DNA of 30,702 nt from a virus (Duplodnaviria > Heunggongvirae > Uroviricota > Caudoviricetes): positions 1 through 30,702 of the IMG/VR virus record IMGVR_UViG_3300022468_000539. One strand, written 5' to 3'. The notes under the pieces were generated by a model, which was given only the letters and a program-made list of their open reading frames with translations, did not search any database and was not told the origin of the DNA. Made by a program: the position numbers and the translations under genes. Positions 3,434-24,091 of the stretch are shown in pieces; position 1 is the stretch's first letter, and the number at the start of each line of letters is the position of its first letter.

Positions 3434-3459
3434 TGTTTCGATGGATGAATTATAACACA
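3434..3459 (-). promoter_or_regulatory. Early-type promoter TGTGT-TATAAT-TCATCCATCGAAACA
   Basis: Extended -10. The 21 nt TATAATTCATCCATCGAAACA are identical to 24096-24116 (+). Confidence 0.7.
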
Positions 3460-3467
3460 ACTTTCCA

Positions 3468-3474
3468 TTAAATA
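3468..3474 (+). promoter_or_regulatory. T4-type late promoter-like TTAAATA
   Basis: Variant of the T4 late consensus TATAAATA, 22 nt upstream of the ATG at 3497, followed by a GAGG RBS. Confidence 0.55.
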
Positions 3475-3496
3475 GAGAAAGTTTAGAGGAAAAAAT

Positions 3497-4114
3497 ATGA
3501 ATGTCACAGAAGCAGTTGTTTTAGTTGTAGAACAAGAAAATTTTAAAAAGTGGTTTGGTAAATCTACATTACACCAAGATGGTAAACCACACACTTTTTA
3601 TCACGGAACATCATCCGATTTCTCAGAATTTAAATCTGGCACAGGTAATCAGTGGGGTAAAGGTCTATATTTTATTCGATCCCCAAAAATTGCCAGTGAT
3701 TATGCATCTGGTACAACCTCTGGGTCGCATGCACGTATAGCACCTTCTGGAAATGCTGCTCCTAATGTAGTTCCCGTGCATCTAAGAATGGAAAAACCTT
3801 TCGTAATGGATGCACCATTAGAGGCATCGACTGTTACGAAAGTAAAAAAACACTTAGGTGATGGTGGTAAAGATTTAAAAGATCATCTATGGCAGGGTAT
3901 GAAGAATAGGGATTTACACCAAGTTTTACACCAGCAGTTTCTACCCAATGTAGATGCTGCTAATGACGTTATACAAAAATCTGGCTTTGATGGTATTAAA
4001 GAAAAACATGATGACTCTATTCATATGGTTTTTCACCCAAATCAAGTCAAATCAGCAATTGGAAATAATGGCAACTATTCAAAAACATCAAACAACATTA
4101 ATGAGTCTATCTAA
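3497..4114 (+). CDS. Stand-alone ADP-ribosyltransferase-like domain (ART-PolyVal type)
   Basis: ENFKKWFGKS...DGKPHTFYHGT, GKGLYF, VVPVHL...P, GFDG, MVFHPNQVKSAIGNNG: the pattern of the ART-PolyVal domain. Confidence 0.75.
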   Translation: MNVTEAVVLVVEQENFKKWFGKSTLHQDGKPHTFYHGTSSDFSEFKSGTGNQWGKGLYFIRSPKIASDYASGTTSGSHARIAPSGNAAPNVVPVHLRMEKPFVMDAPLEASTVTKVKKHLGDGGKDLKDHLWQGMKNRDLHQVLHQQFLPNVDAANDVIQKSGFDGIKEKHDDSIHMVFHPNQVKSAIGNNGNYSKTSNNINESI

Positions 4115-5971: not shown

Positions 5972-8181
5972 TGCCTAAATTAACAGCAGCTAACGGGATT
6001 TTATATCTCGATGGTGATGTATGTGATCATATTGGTTTCAACTACTATTCCGCAATGGAAAAGGAGTGGTCTAATCTCGCATATGACAATGGATACAGAT
6101 ATAAGGAAGATTTTCCAATTCTGAAAAATCGCGGAATCAAGATCGTCAAAACCATGATGACGCCATTTGATTCCAGTACATATACCAGTGTTGTTGGTAA
6201 CTCACTTACTGCTGTTAATGCTAACTATTACTTAGGAACAGTAAATGGTTCCTATCCTGCATACAGTTACTACAATGGTGTTGATAAATTTTTAGAAACT
6301 GCACTTGATAATGATGTTGGTGTCATTCTGACGTTCAACTGGTTCTATAAAACTATTGCTGACATTTTCGATGCCGGTAATTATTCTAAGTGGAATGATC
6401 CAAATTCTAATTCACGAATTCATTTCAGAATGTTCATGAATGATTTTGTGACTCGTTACACAACAGGTTCAAAGGCAAACTTGGGTGAAGCAATTGCTGG
6501 ATGGTCATTCACCAATGAAGCAGAAGTTATTTTTAATAATTCATCGACATCATCAACTTCATCAGATATCAACTTAGAAGGTTATCTTGGTATATTGTCT
6601 GATGCCAAGAAAATTGTAAAATCACTCGATCCATATGCCCGTATTGTTTGTGCGCAAACAACTGCGCCTATTGTAAATGCTCGTCAAAAAGATGTTAATT
6701 CTGTAAGTTCAATTTTGGCTCGTTATTATGGAAGAATCCATGAAGTTGCAGATGTTGTAGAATTACATACATACCCTGATAATAAGTTCATGGGTGTGAC
6801 TGATTTTGTTGAAAACAAGTACCCCTACAGAATGGGCGCTGTTGCTGGTTTTGAAAGTTTCTTAAAAGAAGCAGTTCGATATGCAGCTAGTATCAGGAAA
6901 CCACTATTCCTTGGTGAATTTGGTGTGTCTCAAAGATTCAATGCAGAAAATTCAGATGTATCTCCACTAGCGGTTACTGTTTCCAGTGTTGCTTCAGGAG
7001 TTTCTGTAATACCTTGCTCGAACACTACTGGAATTTCAGTAGGTATGATTGTTTCATCGTCAAACACTACAAATGGTACTGCTGTGTCTGGTGGAACAGT
7101 TATCACTGCCGTTGTTCCTAACACATCATTCACGATAGCACCCGCAGCAAAAACAACCACACCGACAACACTTTATGTCTATCAAAGTTCGGATACAGAA
7201 GAAAGAATGTTTTCTTCCATGGTGGATTCAATAAAGAAAGCTGGTGTTCAACTTTCCCTTTGCTGGAATTGGAATGAGAGCAAATATGTCTCTTCTCAGA
7301 ACGTTTGGTCAGTATATCCAAATATTGATAGTGCTAGAAACTATCCGACTGGCAATGCATATCACAACACACGATATAAACAGATCGACATTATTGAGCA
7401 AGCAAACAAAACTTCACTGATTGGATCACCATACTCAAATCGGCTGCCTTCGCCACCTAATAGCTTTTTGAGACTTCGTAGGCAAAGCGGATTTTTCCCA
7501 TGTGTCGGTTTGACTGATGTGGCTAAACTACCAAACTTTTGGTCTAGGTTTTCTGCAAATGGTGGAGACTTCACAATCAGTTTTTGGTTCAGACCTAATT
7601 CAATTTCAACCAGTTTCCCAACAATTTGGAGATATGGTAATGATGGTATCAATCAAATAATACTTGCTCAACAACCATTAACAGGTTCTGTTTTACCTAA
7701 TATCTATGCTGAAGGTAAAACTGCTAGTTCTACAACATTATCGACTGCCGGTATGAACAGAGGATTGGTTCAGTATGAGTGGCAGCACATGATCATTTCT
7801 GTTAAGACACATGCTGTAAATAAAAAGCAAACTAAGGTTTATTCACAGGGTGTTTTAGTTTCTCACTCACCATTGGGGAATTACACATTTGGACAACCAA
7901 ATTCATCATCTACACAGGTATGGACAATTGGTACAGGTGGAAACATTGCTAGTAGCATTGCTGATACAAACTTTGATATGGCTAACTTAAATATTTTTGG
8001 TCGAGCAGTCACAGAAAGTGAAGCATATGACATTTATAACGGAGTCGTCCCGACTGATGTTATTGCGAGTTATCCTTTTGACGATACCAATACATATAAT
8101 GATATTTCTGGGAATCAATTCCATTTAGCAACAGGCGCAAATTCTCAGATCGTTACTGCACCAATTAAGACACAAAGATGA
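5971..8181 (+). CDS. GH5-like (clan GH-A) glycoside hydrolase with C-terminal LamG/ConA-like domain
   Basis: LYLDG...IGFNYY; WSFTNE (acid/base E, 6517-6519); HTYP; PLFLGEFG (nucleophile E, 6916-6918); LCWNW. C-terminal FTISFWFRP...WQHMII...VYSQG...IFGRAVTESE is LamG-like. Confidence 0.8.
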   Translation: MPKLTAANGILYLDGDVCDHIGFNYYSAMEKEWSNLAYDNGYRYKEDFPILKNRGIKIVKTMMTPFDSSTYTSVVGNSLTAVNANYYLGTVNGSYPAYSYYNGVDKFLETALDNDVGVILTFNWFYKTIADIFDAGNYSKWNDPNSNSRIHFRMFMNDFVTRYTTGSKANLGEAIAGWSFTNEAEVIFNNSSTSSTSSDINLEGYLGILSDAKKIVKSLDPYARIVCAQTTAPIVNARQKDVNSVSSILARYYGRIHEVADVVELHTYPDNKFMGVTDFVENKYPYRMGAVAGFESFLKEAVRYAASIRKPLFLGEFGVSQRFNAENSDVSPLAVTVSSVASGVSVIPCSNTTGISVGMIVSSSNTTNGTAVSGGTVITAVVPNTSFTIAPAAKTTTPTTLYVYQSSDTEERMFSSMVDSIKKAGVQLSLCWNWNESKYVSSQNVWSVYPNIDSARNYPTGNAYHNTRYKQIDIIEQANKTSLIGSPYSNRLPSPPNSFLRLRRQSGFFPCVGLTDVAKLPNFWSRFSANGGDFTISFWFRPNSISTSFPTIWRYGNDGINQIILAQQPLTGSVLPNIYAEGKTASSTTLSTAGMNRGLVQYEWQHMIISVKTHAVNKKQTKVYSQGVLVSHSPLGNYTFGQPNSSSTQVWTIGTGGNIASSIADTNFDMANLNIFGRAVTESEAYDIYNGVVPTDVIASYPFDDTNTYNDISGNQFHLATGANSQIVTAPIKTQR

Positions 8182-10469
8182 CAAGTTACTATATCGATGC
8201 TATCAACGGAAATAACTCAAATGATGGGTTAACTACAGCAACACCCAAAAAAGGTATTGGTCGCAGTATTGGAGATGACTACTATGAATATAGAAATGGT
8301 GGGTGGGAACTTACACCCACCATTTCGCGAGAAACAAATATGTTGACAGTTTCGGAGAAAAAGAACTCACCATATACTGTAATCTCATTATATTATTCTG
8401 AGTGGCAAACACCAGGCCAGAGCTATAACAAAACACCTTGGAATTGGTTTACTCGGGATGATCTTGATGAAAGATACCCTCTGTTTGCTAAGACAAAAGA
8501 CTATAAACCATTTTTGTATGACTTTTCTAATGAAAGAATCAGAAATTATGCCACAACAAGTAGTTCTACACTAACATCAACTGGTAGAACATTGATTCAA
8601 ACTGCAACTGGTGCAGACCCTATTTTCTATCCAAATTTTCCTGTTTTTGACGGATCACAATTTAGATATGTTCGTATATCTTTGCGACGTATTGCTGGTT
8701 CAGCTTGGGATGGTGCAGTTTATTACACTACATCTGGACATAGTTGGTCTGCATCATACATGAAAACCAATTCGCAGCCAGTGTGGAATGCTAATGGTAT
8801 GACCACATTTACTGCCGATATGCATTCTCTTACTGCAGGTGGTACAGATTGGGCAACAAACAAAATTACTGGATTGCGATTAGACTTTGGTGCAAGTGTA
8901 TCAGATGTTTTTGAAATTGCATCTGTTGAACTACTCACACCAACCGGTCAATCATATGTAGTTGAAATGACCGAACATGATCCTAATCAAGCTGGTTCTT
9001 TTGCACGTGAACAAAAAGTCGCATATAGCTATGGTATTGATGTATTTTCTTCTTGCTACTATTGGGATGGCACAAAAAACTTCGCTGATTCATCGTTCAA
9101 AATGTTTGCAAACCACCCAGAGCGAAATCGACCAAAATTCTGTATTATGTGGGCAATCACATCATCCGCAAATCCTATTTCTGGGCCATTTGGTACTGTG
9201 AACAATGTACCAAATTTGACTGGATGGTATTCTTTGTTGGATGATTGGTATGAAATTTGGAAATCAGACAAATACTGGTTCAAAGGTGGTAAGCCTGTTG
9301 TTATGGCCTTTACTGCTGGTAACATTAGAGTCTCTGCCGCATGTAACTATGGATTTTTGACATCTAAAGTTGTGTCAACACATACCGCAGGAACAAATAT
9401 TGTTTCCTTACCTGATGTGACTGGTGTTACTGTGAACAACCGGGTTACAGGTACTGGTATTAACACTGTTGGTGATGATATCTTTATCACTGCTATCAAT
9501 GGTAATAACATAACGCTATCCAAGTCGATTTCTACCAGTCTCACAGGGGTAACTATCTCCATCAGAAATGCAGCTACTGTGTCGGCAACCACACAGCTTT
9601 TAGCTGCTTTGGATGCATATGTAATTGCAAAACCAAATAGTATTGCTCCAAATGGTATTCACTGGACAGCTATGAATGATAACACAGATCATCCAGATTA
9701 TTTTGGTAAGGTTTCTGGAAACACTGAGGCATATCTGAAGACAATTGGTTTTAGTTCCACTGGAACATATAACTTCTTTGATGGTTATGTAGGCCAAATA
9801 CAATTCGGAACTGGTGGTCGGTCATCTGGTACAACTGCTGGATATAACTTCAAAGCCAATTATATTGCTGCCGGTAAAGACCCAAATACATATGCATATC
9901 AAATGGATTTGTATGATAGCACACTCACTTATGCAGCAAACTCAGGAACTACAATTCCTTATTTTGCATCTGTTATGGCGGGTTGGGAAAAGACACCTTG
10001 GACATTCTATGCATCAATTGTTTACATATCAAATGTAACTTGGTTGAATGGTGTGGCAACAGTGTCAACATCAACCTCACATGGTTTTGTTACCGGTGAC
10101 AAAGTAAGTCTAAAAGACATTTTGACAAATGGCTATACAGTTGACAACGGTTACAATAAAAAGCGTGTTTCTGTTACTGTATTAAATACTACACAGTTCA
10201 CCTTCACATGCGAAAATTTTGGTGATTATGTTAGTGGTGGTGTATGTGTCAAAGACCCAGATTCTTCACACAGAGCAGCAACCATTAAAGAATTCAGGGA
10301 ACACTTGGTTCGCACCAAAACAATCATGGATGCAGCACCAGCAACAGGTACAGACAAGACCATCATGATCTATGCTTGGAATGAATTTGGTGAAGGTGGA
10401 TTTATATGTCCAACTCGTAAGTACGGATATAAGATGCTTGAAGCTATCAAGACAACATTTAATAAATAA
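8178..10469 (+). CDS. GH99-like / WbsX-family glycoside hydrolase with inserted CBM-like and beta modules
   Basis: AYSYGIDVF..CYYW, KFCIMWA, YWFKGGKPV, GWEKTPW, IMIYAWNEFGEGGFICPT (E-x-x-E pair at 10383 and 10392). N-terminal YYIDAINGNNSNDG is a motif seen in virion proteins. Confidence 0.75.
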   Translation: MTSYYIDAINGNNSNDGLTTATPKKGIGRSIGDDYYEYRNGGWELTPTISRETNMLTVSEKKNSPYTVISLYYSEWQTPGQSYNKTPWNWFTRDDLDERYPLFAKTKDYKPFLYDFSNERIRNYATTSSSTLTSTGRTLIQTATGADPIFYPNFPVFDGSQFRYVRISLRRIAGSAWDGAVYYTTSGHSWSASYMKTNSQPVWNANGMTTFTADMHSLTAGGTDWATNKITGLRLDFGASVSDVFEIASVELLTPTGQSYVVEMTEHDPNQAGSFAREQKVAYSYGIDVFSSCYYWDGTKNFADSSFKMFANHPERNRPKFCIMWAITSSANPISGPFGTVNNVPNLTGWYSLLDDWYEIWKSDKYWFKGGKPVVMAFTAGNIRVSAACNYGFLTSKVVSTHTAGTNIVSLPDVTGVTVNNRVTGTGINTVGDDIFITAINGNNITLSKSISTSLTGVTISIRNAATVSATTQLLAALDAYVIAKPNSIAPNGIHWTAMNDNTDHPDYFGKVSGNTEAYLKTIGFSSTGTYNFFDGYVGQIQFGTGGRSSGTTAGYNFKANYIAAGKDPNTYAYQMDLYDSTLTYAANSGTTIPYFASVMAGWEKTPWTFYASIVYISNVTWLNGVATVSTSTSHGFVTGDKVSLKDILTNGYTVDNGYNKKRVSVTVLNTTQFTFTCENFGDYVSGGVCVKDPDSSHRAATIKEFREHLVRTKTIMDAAPATGTDKTIMIYAWNEFGEGGFICPTRKYGYKMLEAIKTTFNK

Positions 10470-19639: not shown

Positions 19640-20155
19640 ATGAAAACTTTTTACATTCACGGTTACGGCTCTTCTCCCAAGTCACAGACTTTCTTGGATA
19701 TGCAAGCAGCTATTCCTGATATCGAATGCTTGACATATGATAGTAATTCGCCAATCAGTTCTATTTTTCTATTTGTCGGCCAAGTTTTAAAGGTTGATGA
19801 ACCGATCCATATCATTGCATCGTCATTGGGCGGTTGGTATGCAGAACAGATTGCATCCATCATTCCAGTGTCTTTGACCCTATATAACCCTTCACTGAAT
19901 CCACGTGAATCTTTGAAGAAGTATGGGTTGCCTGAAAGCGTTACAAATTTGTATCGTGACGTTTTGATCAACCCAAATGTTGATCGCACTGTTGTCCTTT
20001 CAAAGGATGACACTGTGGTTTCTCCTGATAACGCAATGGTTAAATATGCAGACATTGCAAATATGGTCATCACAGAAGGTGGTCATAGAATGACCCCAAC
20101 AAACTTAGGTATTATCGTAGATGACTGGAAATTTAGATCAAATCAACTTGGATGA
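19640..20155 (+). CDS. YqiA/YcfP-like alpha/beta hydrolase (esterase)
   Basis: YIHGYGSS, ASSLGGWYA nucleophile elbow, NPS, D-x-VV and GGH triad. Confidence 0.85.
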   Translation: MKTFYIHGYGSSPKSQTFLDMQAAIPDIECLTYDSNSPISSIFLFVGQVLKVDEPIHIIASSLGGWYAEQIASIIPVSLTLYNPSLNPRESLKKYGLPESVTNLYRDVLINPNVDRTVVLSKDDTVVSPDNAMVKYADIANMVITEGGHRMTPTNLGIIVDDWKFRSNQLG

Positions 20156-21152
20156 AGTAATTTTCGAAAATGTTACTGTGAATTTTAGATTCTCAGATTT
20201 TCGAAAGCTAAATGAAGGGTTTAAGAACTTTTTACCATCTGATGTAGAAAAGAAACGTGCCCATGCCGATGAAATCCATGCAATGCTTACAAAGGCATAT
20301 GCTGATCAAGGTGGTATAAAAGGTACCGGTTTTGAATCACCTGAAAGTATGGTTCATAACATTCCTATGTGGAAAATCCATAAACAAGATGGAAAGATTC
20401 GCAGTGTGGCTATGTATAAAGATTCGGATGGTCGTAAACGTGTTGCTATTGCTACCGATGGTACTCCAGAAGGAAAGGCATCTGCAGCCAAAGTTGTTGA
20501 TGCTGATTTAAGAAAGCATCGTGCCCACATGGAAGTTTCTGGTAAATCACTTTCTGTTTTAAAGAAAATGGTTCCTATCAAAGACTTTGCACGTAGTTTT
20601 GAGGATGCTGAAAAATTTCATGCTTCACGTGGCGATAAAATTGAGCGACCAACAGATGATGATCCAGAGGCTGTTCGTCATCCAGAACTGAAGCATCTGA
20701 TGTACACTCGCGAACTCGGTGGTGAGAAAAAGACCAAGATTATGCTTGGTAAGCAGGGTTTGAAGATCACCGAAGCCACTGCCGAAGACCACTTCAAGGC
20801 ATCTAAGTCACGATTCAACCGTAGCCACTATTCGACAGGTGGTTGGACAGTTGTTCCTAACACACACCCTGCAGCACAAGCTGCTGATCGTCGGCCTGAG
20901 TTTTCAACCGATGACTGGAATAAGTTGCATGACAAGTCTATCGCTGCTATCCATAAGCATAAAGTGCCTTCAGGCTATCATGTCATGTTTAGTCGGCATA
21001 TGGATCAGGGTTATGTCACTCACGTTGATCATGACTCGAAGAAGTTAAATATTGTCACAGTTTTGCCACGTGGGAAGTATCGACCAACAAAAGAAGGTGA
21101 TGGTCGAGTTATTTTTGAATCTATTTCAGAAAATTTTGTTGACATAGACTAA
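20121..21152 (+). CDS. Two-domain phage protein, possible internal head protein (343 aa; start uncertain, alternative GTG at 20178)
   Basis: Long ORF with good codon usage; FSDFRKLNE near the N terminus and an internal KITEAT junction. Function unknown. Confidence 0.65.
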   Translation: MTGNLDQINLDEVIFENVTVNFRFSDFRKLNEGFKNFLPSDVEKKRAHADEIHAMLTKAYADQGGIKGTGFESPESMVHNIPMWKIHKQDGKIRSVAMYKDSDGRKRVAIATDGTPEGKASAAKVVDADLRKHRAHMEVSGKSLSVLKKMVPIKDFARSFEDAEKFHASRGDKIERPTDDDPEAVRHPELKHLMYTRELGGEKKTKIMLGKQGLKITEATAEDHFKASKSRFNRSHYSTGGWTVVPNTHPAAQAADRRPEFSTDDWNKLHDKSIAAIHKHKVPSGYHVMFSRHMDQGYVTHVDHDSKKLNIVTVLPRGKYRPTKEGDGRVIFESISENFVDID

Positions 21153-21156
21153 ACTG

Positions 21157-21165
21157 TGTTATAAT
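21157..21165 (+). promoter_or_regulatory. Extended -10 promoter TGt-TATAAT
   Basis: TTGACA at 21139-21144 is only 15 nt away, so the TG extension probably matters. Only 6 nt separate it from the ATG at 21172, so the mRNA may be leaderless. Confidence 0.55.
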
Positions 21166-21171
21166 TCGGGT

Positions 21172-21435
21172 ATGACACAGACACATACCCAAATCCGCGA
21201 AGCTAACATTCTTTCCCTGCTGCGTAAACACGATCCAGCAGGCGTTGGCATTTTTCCAGAATCAGAAATCAACTACATTGAGTATGCTCATGAAGCATCG
21301 CTCTTGGTTACCGTTTCTGACGAAAATTTCATCACTGCAGCATGTAAATTTCTAGAATCAACATATGGCCGTGTGGTTGATTCTTATATGGTCAATCGTG
21401 TTACTTTAGTTGCTGCTGAACTACGAAAGATGTAA
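21172..21435 (+). CDS. Hypothetical protein (87 aa)
   Basis: ORF fills the gap between flanking genes and follows a promoter. Confidence 0.6.
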   Translation: MTQTHTQIREANILSLLRKHDPAGVGIFPESEINYIEYAHEASLLVTVSDENFITAACKFLESTYGRVVDSYMVNRVTLVAAELRKM

Positions 21436-21441
21436 ATCTTT

Positions 21442-22122
21442 ATGCTCAAGAAAAATAAACTACCAACTCTAAAAATCACCAATGCTTTTGGTGATGCTGT
21501 CATCAAAGTGAAGAAAAACCGCTGGATTCAAGGTGCCAAGTGGTTTATTGCTATCGTAATTATAGCAATTGCTTCCGCAACTTACACTGTGGGTAAATCG
21601 ACGTATCAAGAATATGTTGCAAAACAAAACTATGTTGCTGAAGAAACCAAGAAAGCACTCTCTGGTGAAGATTCTATAGTCATTCAAGCTACTGCAGACA
21701 TCATCAAGCGTGATGCTAAGGTGCCTACTTCTAACGAAATTGCCAAGAAATATGCAATGTGGGTCTATCAGGCTGCGTCTAAGTATTCCGTTGATCCAGT
21801 GCTGGTATTGTCCGTGATGCGTAACGAATCACAGTTTGACTACAAGGCAACTTCTCCTACTGGCGCACGTGGTTTGATGCAAGTGATTGCGTCTTGGCAT
21901 CGTGAAAAAACAAGTGAAGTGGCACTGTATGATCCTAAAAATGCTATCTTTGTAGGAACACAAATTCTTGCGGAATATGGTGCTAGGTCTAAGACTGAAG
22001 CGGAAACGTTGCTTCGATACAACGGTTCTTTGAATCAAGCACCTGTGTATGCTACAAAGGTGCTACTGACCAAGCGTAAATATGATGATGAAATCTATAA
22101 AGCAATCATCAATGATGTATAA
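21442..22122 (+). CDS. Lytic transglycosylase (SLT domain) with N-terminal membrane anchor
   Basis: PVLVLSVMRNESQF (catalytic E), GARGLMQV, LLRYNG and YATKV; hydrophobic WFIAIVIIAIASATYTVG. Confidence 0.88.
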   Translation: MLKKNKLPTLKITNAFGDAVIKVKKNRWIQGAKWFIAIVIIAIASATYTVGKSTYQEYVAKQNYVAEETKKALSGEDSIVIQATADIIKRDAKVPTSNEIAKKYAMWVYQAASKYSVDPVLVLSVMRNESQFDYKATSPTGARGLMQVIASWHREKTSEVALYDPKNAIFVGTQILAEYGARSKTEAETLLRYNGSLNQAPVYATKVLLTKRKYDDEIYKAIINDV

Positions 22123-22130
22123 GGAAAATA

Positions 22131-22301
22131 ATGGCAACTGCGCACAATGACATTACTAACGACAAGATCGCTTCTAAGGTACCTTCTCAGGATTACCTTA
22201 GTAATTTCGACTTGATTTTTCGTAAAAACAAGCCTGTTGAGGCACCAAAAGTTGAAGACGATAAATATGTAATCGAATCTCAACAACCAACAGGAAATTA
22301 A
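22131..22301 (+). CDS. Small conserved-type phage protein (56 aa), missed by the ORF track
   Basis: AAGGA RBS. MATAHNDITNDKIASKVPSQDYLSNFDLIFRK... exactly fills the gap and resembles a small phage family with the NDITxD...Y..N.D.IF pattern (from recall). Confidence 0.7.
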   Translation: MATAHNDITNDKIASKVPSQDYLSNFDLIFRKNKPVEAPKVEDDKYVIESQQPTGN

Positions 22302-22303
22302 TA

Positions 22304-24046
22304 ATGCAAACTTTCAAGGAATTTAGAGCAGAGCGGATGAATCCGACTGAGGCTCATGTTCAAGCCAAACACTTTGACACTCAAGAATATGATGTGCTGA
22401 CTGGTAAAGAAGCAACAAACGAATCAGTTTCTCCTGATCCAGAAAATGCAAAGCGCATCATCATGCGTCACGATGGCGAAGGTGCGCCTAAAGGTGTTTC
22501 TGGCTTGAGCGTTCCACGCCACATGTGGGAAGGTTCTAAGACCATGACTGGTATGGCAGAGCGTAATAAAGCACGTGCTGAAGTATATGGCTCCGAACAT
22601 CGCGAACCCCTCTCGGTTTCCGAAATGGAAGAAAGCCATAAATCTGTTTTGGATGAACACTTTGCAAAGCCAAAAGCACTGCAAATCGCTCATGAAAAAG
22701 AAGCTATTGGTCGTCTGAAGGCTGCTAAACATTTGGATTCCGGTAGTACAACCGACGAATCTGAAAAAACCGATACCATCCTGCATGAAAAGGATAAATC
22801 TGGTCGTGGCTACATTGCTGCAGCGTGTAAAGGTGTGGCTGGTCATGCTGTTTACACTTCTGGTGGTGGTGAGCATGCGCAGCATCGGGTGGTGAATACC
22901 TGCCCGGGTCAGACTCGTGGTTGTGGTGGTGGTGTTGATGCCCATGGCGTTGCGAACACGACTAAGGGTACATGTTTTGCACCTAATGCCGAGGCACAGT
23001 ATCCGGGCGCTTCGATCCGTCGCGCATACCTTGATCAGTCAAAACATGATCCTAAGATGACCAAAGACTACATCTTGGCTCATACTCACTCTATCCGTAT
23101 GGGTGCTGAAAAGGCTGACAAGAAAGACAAGAATTTCGTTATTCGACCAAACACTTTGAATGAGAATGATCGTTCGACAAAGCACGTTGTGCGCCAACTG
23201 AATGCACAACGTGCTACAGAAGGTAAGTCTAAGATCATTAGCTACCAGTACAGCAAGACTAACGAATTGAACGATCCAGAAAACGGTACTCACGTTACCC
23301 ACTCCAACATTGGCCCAAAGGTGATCAATGGTAAGATGGTGCGTGAAAACGTTAATCGTGACTCACATCGCGTTAACAACACTGTGACTGCAACTAAGTC
23401 TTCTGGTGAAGATTTGCGAAACGTGCAAGGCAACAAGACCCCTGCTATGCACTCTTACTTGGTTACCAATTTACCACGTGGTGGTGCTATGGACAAAGAG
23501 TACCAGAAGCATGCAAAGACCATTAAGTATTGGGATCGTGGTACAAAGCTGTCTGAAGACGAATTGAAGTCTAGCCCTCGTGAAGGTCACTTTGACGGTG
23601 CTGGTAAGCCTACAACCGAAGATAAGGCACACCATGGATTTAAGGTGGTTGGTGAGCGTAAGTATGAGTATCAGAATCAACACATCTTGCATCCACGGAT
23701 GACCAGTGTAAACGGGCATGATATTCCTTCTGACTCACGTTTCAAAGACGACGAACATATGCCCTCTGAGGCTACCCGTTTCAAGTCTAAAAACGGTAAG
23801 TCTGCCGGTGGTGTGGTTGTGACTTCTGCAACGACTTCTACCAGTGGTGAGCGTAGCAATTCTTCCTTCACGCATCGTATTGATCAACACAAACTTGATA
23901 AAATCAAGCAGACTGGAGTTCATGAAATCGATGCGCCTGAAGAGCAAGAGGCAGCACGTGGTAAAGACTACAATGGTGAAGAACATGCAGTTCCATTGAG
24001 CAAAATTGGTGGTCTGAAGAAAACTCTCAAAGAGTCTGAAGAATAA
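22304..24046 (+). CDS. GP88-like Cys-motif protein with T4 internal-protein-like N terminus (580 aa)
   Basis: MQTFKEFRAE N terminus; TCPGQTRGC...CF (C200, C207, C224); VIRPN, YQYSK, HVTHS and SDSRF-x-D; ATAAATA at 22261-22267 upstream. Confidence 0.6.
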   Translation: MQTFKEFRAERMNPTEAHVQAKHFDTQEYDVLTGKEATNESVSPDPENAKRIIMRHDGEGAPKGVSGLSVPRHMWEGSKTMTGMAERNKARAEVYGSEHREPLSVSEMEESHKSVLDEHFAKPKALQIAHEKEAIGRLKAAKHLDSGSTTDESEKTDTILHEKDKSGRGYIAAACKGVAGHAVYTSGGGEHAQHRVVNTCPGQTRGCGGGVDAHGVANTTKGTCFAPNAEAQYPGASIRRAYLDQSKHDPKMTKDYILAHTHSIRMGAEKADKKDKNFVIRPNTLNENDRSTKHVVRQLNAQRATEGKSKIISYQYSKTNELNDPENGTHVTHSNIGPKVINGKMVRENVNRDSHRVNNTVTATKSSGEDLRNVQGNKTPAMHSYLVTNLPRGGAMDKEYQKHAKTIKYWDRGTKLSEDELKSSPREGHFDGAGKPTTEDKAHHGFKVVGERKYEYQNQHILHPRMTSVNGHDIPSDSRFKDDEHMPSEATRFKSKNGKSAGGVVVTSATTSTSGERSNSSFTHRIDQHKLDKIKQTGVHEIDAPEEQEAARGKDYNGEEHAVPLSKIGGLKKTLKESEE

Positions 24047-24066: not shown

Positions 24067-24091
24067 AAAAAGGCCCCTAGGGGCCTTTTTT
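24067..24091. terminator. Bidirectional rho-independent terminator
   Basis: Perfect palindrome aaaaaggccc-ctag-gggccttttt with A-run and T-run flanks. Confidence 0.85.

Follow-up and report, generated by a model that had tools for sequence, protein, structure and literature searches.

A leader-tagged GP88-like protein of a divergent T4-type phage is a candidate head-packaged effector

Positions 1 to 30,702 of the IMG/VR virus record IMGVR_UViG_3300022468_000539 (Caudoviricetes) were analysed, a stretch of 30,702 nt that is called the window here; the phage's own contig (G0) is 41 kb long and was estimated to be 25% complete. The subject of this work is the open reading frame (ORF) P0001 at 22304..24046, which like all other window features named below is located on the plus strand and encodes a protein of 580 amino acids (aa). 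This protein starts with ten residues resembling the leaders of the internal proteins (IPs) of phage T4 and continues into a long module that is predicted to belong to the GP88 superfamily. It consists of the leader and this single module, is not a multidomain protein and has GP88 as its only Pfam match. A Shine–Dalgarno-like AGGAAA was read in the sequence at 22292..22297, 6 nt 5′ of the ATG, and a strong intrinsic terminator at 24067..24090 (10-bp stem with five GC pairs, T-run) closes the transcription unit. An earlier note on this DNA had described the product as a GP88-like three-cysteine protein with a T4-type leader.

The match of the 580-aa protein to the Pfam GP88 family (PF17338) reached 17.9 bits (E = 0.0029), below the cutoff of 24.4, and covered positions 32–105 of 230 in the model and aa 193–283 in the protein. 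Among its 66 relatives, 62 matched GP88, the best with an E value of 2.7e-10. Relatives above the cutoff were P0122 (27.3 bits), P0187 (27.0 bits) and the orthologue in G2, a complete 168-kb T4-type relative with terminal repeats (29.2 bits; positions 31–221 of 230). AlphaFold2 models were obtained for the full protein (pLDDT 89.9, pTM 0.86) and for the core alone (pLDDT 88.5, pTM 0.87). Fold searches placed GP88 at the top in AFDB, BFVD and ESM Atlas, at a probability of 1.0. The AFDB GP88 clusters aligned over aa 147–529 with TM-scores by hit of 0.5–0.6, BFVD returned several GP88 proteins together with a full-length distant homologue (E = 2e-30), and the ESM Atlas GP88 cluster ranked first with TM-scores of 0.50/0.65 over 335 residues. 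Because of the 62 matches among 66 relatives, the score of the G2 orthologue and the top fold matches, we place the 580-aa protein in the GP88 superfamily, of which it is, by sequence and model, a distant and expanded member. PHROGs gave no family for it, NCBIfam gave no match, and a sequence-profile search of the PDB yielded nothing (best E = 0.93).

The GP88-homologous part is a predicted α/β-barrel core at aa 147–548 (22742..23947), as delimited by the fold searches and the core model. It contains a loop with three cysteines at aa 200–230 (22901..22993), C200-x6-C207-x16-C224 with a proline directly after C200, which is followed by F-A-P-N-A-E and represents a putative metal or Fe–S site. 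In the AlphaFold2 model, this loop comes directly after the core β-strand at aa 193–198. All three cysteines of the triad are invariant in 66 homologues; C175 is not conserved. Further residues invariant in these 66 sequences are K155, R240, D255, R281, E287, N300, Y316, S334, D477 and R479, several of which fall into the motifs by which the earlier note had recognised the GP88 pattern. These motifs are all present, namely IRPN (280–283, with R281), YQYSK (314–318, with Y316), HVTHS (330–334, with S334) and DSRFKD (477–482, with D477 and R479). R281, Y316 and S334 are situated at predicted β-strand ends, and C200 and D477 two residues past one. As had also been stated, the protein is longer than GP88 (a module of about 510 aa compared with about 230 model positions) and rich in His (5.9%) and Lys (9.5%).

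The first ten residues, MQTFKEFRAE (22304..22333), were compared with the T4 record NC_000866, in which IPII and IPIII begin with MKTYQEFIAE and IPI with MKTFKEFTST. Identity amounts to 6/10 with IPII/IPIII, 6/10 with IPI and 6/7 over the first seven residues of IPI, which bears out the parallel drawn before. For IPIII, the first ten residues suffice for packaging, positions 4 and 7 controlling targeting and positions 8 and 10 processing (PMC9026906). Both targeting determinants, F4 and F7, are present in the 580-aa protein, and so is E10. The N-termini of homologues in T4-type phages read M-x-x-F-x-x-[FY], with [LIVM]-x-E following in about half of them; MRSFKEYLAE and MLSFKTFLKE are examples. 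Judged by these comparisons, residues 1–10 are a T4-type capsid-targeting leader.

The leader opens a propeptide-like region at aa 1–40 (22304..22423), which is variable between homologues and comprises helices at residues 4–25 followed by a disordered linker at residues 25–38; the pLDDT of this region is 63–70 and then falls below 50. A second candidate protease site, TNESV (aa 38–42; 22415..22429), was found by its homologue motif at the boundary of propeptide and core and is non-canonical, with Thr at P3. Of the 46 leader-bearing homologues, 39 have the corresponding motif [LIVM]-x-E-[SA]-[VI], situated about 30 residues ahead of the core anchor, and in the AlphaFold2 model this second x-E site marks the transition from the disordered linker to the folded core, which begins at about residue 41; the conserved core starts at about aa 45. 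Close relatives do carry L8 and I38, and the second site reads INESV in the orthologue of G1, an 86-kb IMG/VR contig that is 47% complete. Most siphovirus and polyvalent homologues have quite different, longer N-termini instead of the leader. Capsid targeting of the 580-aa protein is well supported by analogy. Its cleavage at E10 or E40 is uncertain, and the first of these sites is doubtful because it has Arg at position 8 in place of Ile or Leu.

The same leader was found on unrelated ORFs of T4-type relatives. G2 (L083–L091), whose head genes were identified (Gp23, 461 bits; T4 portal, 580 bits; Peptidase_S77, 127 bits), has at least six such ORFs, which start at 7129, 13265, 117824, 130187, 136608 and 136979, all on the minus strand. 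They encode a NUDIX protein, a DUF6321 protein, a protein of unknown type, the GP88-like orthologue, an ART-like protein with a weak match to ADP-ribosyltransferase (ART) and a GNAT protein; the ART-like and GNAT genes are adjacent. A strict version of the leader pattern was present in 5 of 363 ORF N-termini and at 0 of 1317 internal Met positions of G2, and shuffling of residues 2–40 of each ORF, with the N-terminal composition kept, gave a mean of 0.03 matches. The G2 GNAT and DUF6321 proteins correspond to internal or C-terminal segments of far longer PHROG families, one of them with 3925 positions, and the six-ORF set looks like an unbundled polyvalent protein. On the 202-kb T4-type contig L102, three leader-bearing ORFs lie within 20 kb, the GP88-like homologue included; the other two are located at 3447-3923 and 7762-8235 (plus strand). 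One of them encodes the anti-CBASS enzyme Acb1 (59.3 bits) and starts with MQNFKEYIAE, which shares 6/10 residues with the T4 IPIII leader and suggests that this Acb1 may be head-packaged. The second, of 158 aa, is situated directly upstream of the GP88-like gene. Two further leader-bearing ORFs were found in L015.

The conserved module of about 510 aa, delimited by phmmer to aa 45–560 (22436..23983), is common to siphovirus and giant polyvalent proteins. More than 370 metagenomic protein clusters contain it, with an identity of about 50%. It is found in three settings: behind the leader in T4-like phages, between large terminase (TerL) and portal in siphoviruses, and inside polyvalent proteins. 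The siphovirus setting is exemplified by MW202545 (57 kb), where a homologue of 890 aa is encoded between large terminase and portal. The order TerL–homologue–portal was observed in 53 of 80 IMG/VR loci, and the portal starts within 200 nt in 46. About 55 loci (L009–L081) belong to a siphovirus group whose major capsid protein is 92–100% identical (aa) to that of MW202545. Their homologues lie between TerL and portal and vary in their N-terminal extension, as does the length of the gap that follows TerL (0–4 kb); the locus is a variation hot spot in an otherwise conserved head module.

A deep phmmer search without word index detected the module inside proteins of 1000–2163 aa, mostly near their C-terminal end. 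Both these giants and two shorter fusion proteins (about 900 aa) contain ART-PolyVal, ASCH and PcfJ domains (P0122, P0124, P0139, P0141, P0144, P0087, P0065). Such an architecture is that of polyvalent proteins, for which Iyer et al. (2017; PMC5512222) predicted injection together with the DNA of phages or plasmids. A term search of that paper did not find the module named, and literature searches for PF17338 and DUF7227 and, in polyvalent and jumbo-phage papers, for GP88 brought up no mention. Because of the polyvalent-domain fusions and the TerL–portal position in siphoviruses, delivery of the module together with DNA is supported. In a set of about 185,000 species genomes of bacteria and archaea, only five loci were detected, all on contigs of metagenome-assembled genomes; the gene is essentially one of environmental phages. 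A prophage or integrative and conjugative element gene of cultured bacteria was considered and rejected, since these five contigs were all that the species representatives contained.

Close homologues exist in a short form of about 580–600 aa, which ends just after G-G-L-K-K, and a long form of 680–724 aa, in which an [LIV]-K-E junction leads into an additional helical domain of about 100 aa. In the 580-aa protein this junction motif was recognised by comparison of C-termini in TLKESEE (aa 574–580; 24023..24043), and the LKE tail mentioned in the earlier note is present at aa 575–577. Alignment of the window (24039-24045) with the approximately 95% identical L118 (3695-4005) revealed one clean indel of about 309 bp exactly at the junction, which adds or removes the helical C-terminal domain after (L/I)-K-E-S. 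Hence the LKE tail is the junction to an optional module. G1 also lacks this domain. The junction fits the I/L-x-E rule of the T4 prohead protease gp21, consistent with C-terminal modules that might be separable by protease.

Several genes connect G0 with T4-type phages, namely those for UvsY (78.9 bits), a gp41-type helicase, a gp61-type primase and a gp2-like DNA end protector; ribonucleotide reductase (RNR), ThyX and PhoH genes and a weak gp19-like tail tube match were found in addition. G1 is collinear with G0 at about 85–90% aa identity, and its orthologue of the 580-aa protein, 94% identical, is among the best-conserved genes of the region. Relatives of the protein at 60–73% identity are encoded among UvsY, UvsW, SegE, Mom, an Rnl1-like gene and Acb1. 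Because of the UvsY, gp41-, gp61- and gp2-like genes and the UvsW and SegE context of the relatives, we assign the source phage by its gene content to a divergent T4-type lineage. Comparison of the region with named phages gave no match by megablast and only MW202545 by tblastn, and a search for a more complete relative with the helicase as marker returned only G1 and small fragments. Between G0 and G2 (128460-130187), the 580-aa protein is 54% identical, whereas helicase, primase, gp2-like protein and tail tube show only about 30% identity. Strong constraint, horizontal exchange or both are suggested for the gene by this difference. Its GC content of 46.3%, compared with 41.4% for the window, also fits unusually strong constraint or horizontal exchange.

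Upstream of the gene, a block at 19640-22301 encodes a UPF0227-type esterase (171 aa), a phrog_17629 protein (343 aa), an ORF of 87 aa, a membrane-anchored SLT transglycosylase (226 aa) and an ORF of 56 aa. In L103 the same block is located downstream of the GP88-like gene, so that the linkage is loose. The earlier note had ascribed a late-type promoter to the gene. This could not be upheld: the T4 late promoter TATAAATA occurs in two copies in the 30.7-kb window, which is chance level, and in none upstream of the ORF, and the relaxed 7-mer ATAAATA occurs nine times in the window compared with about 11 expected, one copy being located at 22261, 43 nt 5′ of the ATG. The window also contains a stand-alone ART-PolyVal gene (3497..4114; PF18760, 88 bits against a cutoff of 31.2; match at G000 6209-6709), whose product is similar by BLASTP (E = 2e-12) to the ART domains of P0139, a giant protein ending in a GP88-like module. 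Together with the GP88-like gene, the phage thus carries two polyvalent-protein domains as separate genes. The next gene downstream of the ART-PolyVal gene is the tail-tube-like one, and the gp2-like gene comes two genes after it; the N-terminus of the ART-PolyVal protein has no MxxFxxF leader.

For the chemistry of the core, structural comparisons with an aligner other than Foldseek pointed to radical-SAM enzymes. With the full model, NifB, SPL, SuiB and QueE appeared at the top; with the core alone, the top 17 PDB rows were all radical-SAM proteins, from anSME (Z 5.9, rmsd 4.2, 186 aa) to PFL-AE (Z 4.8). In ESM Atlas, HxsB and PA0069 radical-SAM clusters followed GP88 (TM-scores 0.28–0.45). 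A further connection runs through DUF5131 (Gp37/Gp68, PF07505), because the GP88 model also matches most DUF5131 proteins, routinely above GP88's own cutoff; one ORF scored 336 bits with DUF5131 and 37 bits with GP88. Such co-matches were noted at G014:C27:25980-26672 (L115/L117) and among proteins P0203–P0322. A DUF5131-type viral protein also matched our model by Foldseek (E = 1.4e-3, probability 1.0). The two Pfam families thus appear to be related and overlapping; no published statement of this relation was found. In the radical-SAM superfamily as classified at RadicalSAM.org (PMC9477430), DUF5131 makes up Megacluster-5-2 and is placed beside spore photoproduct lyase. Direct homology of the 580-aa protein to DUF5131 was considered and is not claimed because direct profile comparisons by hmmsearch and hhalign were negative; the link is transitive only.

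We favour, with moderate confidence, the view that the 580-aa protein is a head-packaged internal effector of a T4-type phage and that its injection along with the phage DNA is probable. By its leader, the protein would be docked to the scaffolding core while the prohead is assembled. Trimming of the N-terminal propeptide by the prohead protease may follow, in most relatives at [LIVM]-x-E near residues 10 and 40. The mature enzyme of about 60 kDa would be ejected with the DNA and act at the very start of infection, where it would serve host takeover or counter-defence. That the protein is some kind of metal-binding enzyme is likely, and the Cys triad most likely holds the metal centre. The leading guess for this centre, put forward tentatively, is an Fe–S cluster in a radical-SAM-like barrel; a hydrolase-type centre with zinc or another metal is possible, on the doubtful side. 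The substrate would probably be a nucleic acid or nucleotide. Chemistry and target are the weakest steps of this explanation. Its most specific version is unlikely as a whole: that the module is a virion-delivered Fe–S enzyme of radical type, which phages of at least three architectures would preload and inject and whose chemistry would, within seconds of infection, change either a universal target in the host or the DNA or nucleotides that come in.

A number of observations weigh against the proposed packaging and, further below, against the proposed chemistry. The gp21 I/L-x-E rule (Ile or Leu at 8, Glu at 10) is not followed at the first site, which has R8 and E10, and the second site reads T-N-E, with T38, instead of [LIVM]-x-E; even among the leader-bearing homologues, only 21 of 46 have [LIVM]-x-E at positions 8–10. 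A late promoter is not supported for the gene, and one leader-bearing ORF only was seen in G0 (41 kb) and in G1 (86 kb). Head, scaffold and S77 protease genes gave no match in G0 or G1, both of which are incomplete (25% and 47%), so that the packaging machinery is deduced from more distant relatives. The non-canonical sites, the unsupported late promoter and the single leader-bearing ORF would suit an ordinary cytoplasmic enzyme that is not packaged, its leader likeness arising from AT-rich, weakly structured 5′ codons (Lys, Thr, Phe, Glu) or from a mobile 5′ cassette, and the position of the gene among genes of replication and nucleotide metabolism (RNR, ThyX, PhoH) rather than in a head module would suit it as well. 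Yet the ip genes of T4 itself also lie in accessory regions, as the 580-aa gene does, and composition-preserving shuffles gave 0.03 leader matches compared with the five observed in G2. Moreover, non-T4 phages mostly swap the leader for other N-terminal modules and have the gene between terminase and portal, the module is fused into polyvalent proteins, and the conserved second x-E site falls exactly at the fold boundary. Altogether, we consider an unpackaged enzyme improbable. A packaged but non-catalytic virion component, that is, a DNA-binding or DNA-condensing protein or an ejection ("pilot") protein with the Cys triad as a structural zinc site, would account for the Lys- and His-rich composition and for the siphovirus position directly before the portal, a typical place of minor head or ejection proteins. 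The basic, DNA-associated IPII and IPIII of T4 would be a precedent, and in the window the gene lies just downstream of the membrane-anchored SLT transglycosylase, with one small ORF between. This linkage is not conserved, as the other gene order in L103 shows; the fusion partners in the giant proteins are enzymes, and about 50% identity over 510 residues across unrelated types of phage, with about 20 invariant polar residues near predicted strand ends of the barrel, resembles an active site more than a packing protein. A non-catalytic role is therefore very unlikely in our view.

On the side of the chemistry, Foldseek searches with the full model and the core against PDB and Swiss-Prot gave only non-significant rows of TIM barrels and chitinases, and with the other aligner all core-only Z scores stayed below 6 (and below 8), chitinases and other TIM barrels following at 4.7, about one unit lower. 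None of the 66 members matched Radical_SAM (PF04055) or related profiles at E ≤ 1, which turns out negatively for the profile check suggested in the earlier note; because no radical-SAM profile matches, Fe–S chemistry remains inferential. The Cys spacing is C-x6-C-x16-C and not CX3CX2C, and comparison of the family with DUF5131 by hhalign and hmmsearch, using shallow and 125-sequence alignments, gave a probability of 0.03 and no matches. An oxygen-labile [4Fe-4S] cluster is also hard to keep intact in free virions in oxic water, an exposure that a zinc site would survive. With delivery unchanged, the core might thus be a zinc or other metal TIM-barrel hydrolase or transferase of amidohydrolase- or glycosidase-like type rather than an Fe–S or radical enzyme. 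GH18 and GH26 barrels and amidohydrolases are the weak best rows of Foldseek, and H181, H260, H443, H460, H463 and D255 are nearly invariant. All of these hydrolase matches are non-significant, however, and the second aligner ranks radical-SAM proteins above TIM-barrel hydrolases with the full model as well as the core. In addition, the three cysteines directly after the core strand 193–198 occupy the place of the radical-SAM cluster loop, and the GP88 model matches DUF5131, which is classed as radical-SAM. We regard the hydrolase or transferase as rather doubtful and keep the Fe–S cluster as the leading guess for the proposed injected enzyme.

If the packaging and injection of the 580-aa protein are true, it would be among the most conserved candidate injected effectors in environmental phages. 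The T4 leader, the portal-adjacent gene and the polyvalent fusion would represent three routes into the virion, and their convergence speaks for an early function of importance, directed at some conserved feature of the host. The T4 capsid-targeting tag may then allow virion cargo to be predicted from sequence in uncultured T4-type phages; the tagged Acb1, NUDIX, GNAT and ART-like proteins are the kinds of enzyme that are bundled in polyvalent proteins. Solving the chemistry would assign a function to GP88 and possibly to DUF5131, and could yield a new tool enzyme. An injected Fe–S enzyme, if true, would stand for a new class of injected counter-defence chemistry and for an Fe–S enzyme that can be stored in a capsid.

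Among known systems, the T4 internal proteins IPI–III with their capsid-targeting sequence (Mullaney and Black, 1996; reviewed in PMC9026906 and PMC3012670) are similar in the ten-residue leader of M-K/Q-T-F/Y-x-E-F-x-A-E type, with aromatics at 4 and 7 and Glu at 10, in the variable accessory region and in the diversity of the cargo that follows a conserved tag; of these proteins, IPI* acts against restriction after injection. Unlike the 580-aa protein with its conserved enzyme-like barrel, they comprise 95–193 aa and are not enzyme-like, and their processing determinant at position 8 is Ile, whereas it is Arg here. Packaging is known for the T4 proteins and predicted for the 580-aa protein. 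With regard to size, the earlier note had thought a packaged enzyme of 580 aa unusual. A large packaged enzyme is not unprecedented because T4 Alt, an ADP-ribosyltransferase of 682 aa that is processed by gp21, is described in its record as a capsid component that enters the host along with the DNA; the window for its part encodes the solo ART-PolyVal gene. Alt differs in its start (MELITELFDE), propeptide, fold and chemistry, and its activity has been established experimentally. Pfam GP88, a phage family with three conserved cysteines, has the Cys triad as well, and its downstream motifs follow in the same order, but it covers only about 230 positions compared with about 510 aa here, where an extra N-terminal subdomain (aa 45–146), insertions of about 150 aa and a spacing of 16 residues from the second to the third cysteine are found. 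The DUF5131 proteins are alike in having an N-terminal three-Cys motif that closes with Cys, an aromatic residue and Ala, C-x7-C-x2-C-Y-A-E, compared with C-x6-C-x16-C-F-A in the 580-aa protein. Finally, polyvalent proteins contain the same module of about 510 aa within 900–2163 aa, together with ART-PolyVal, ASCH and PcfJ domains, whereas here it forms a single-domain protein that would be addressed by a T4-type leader.

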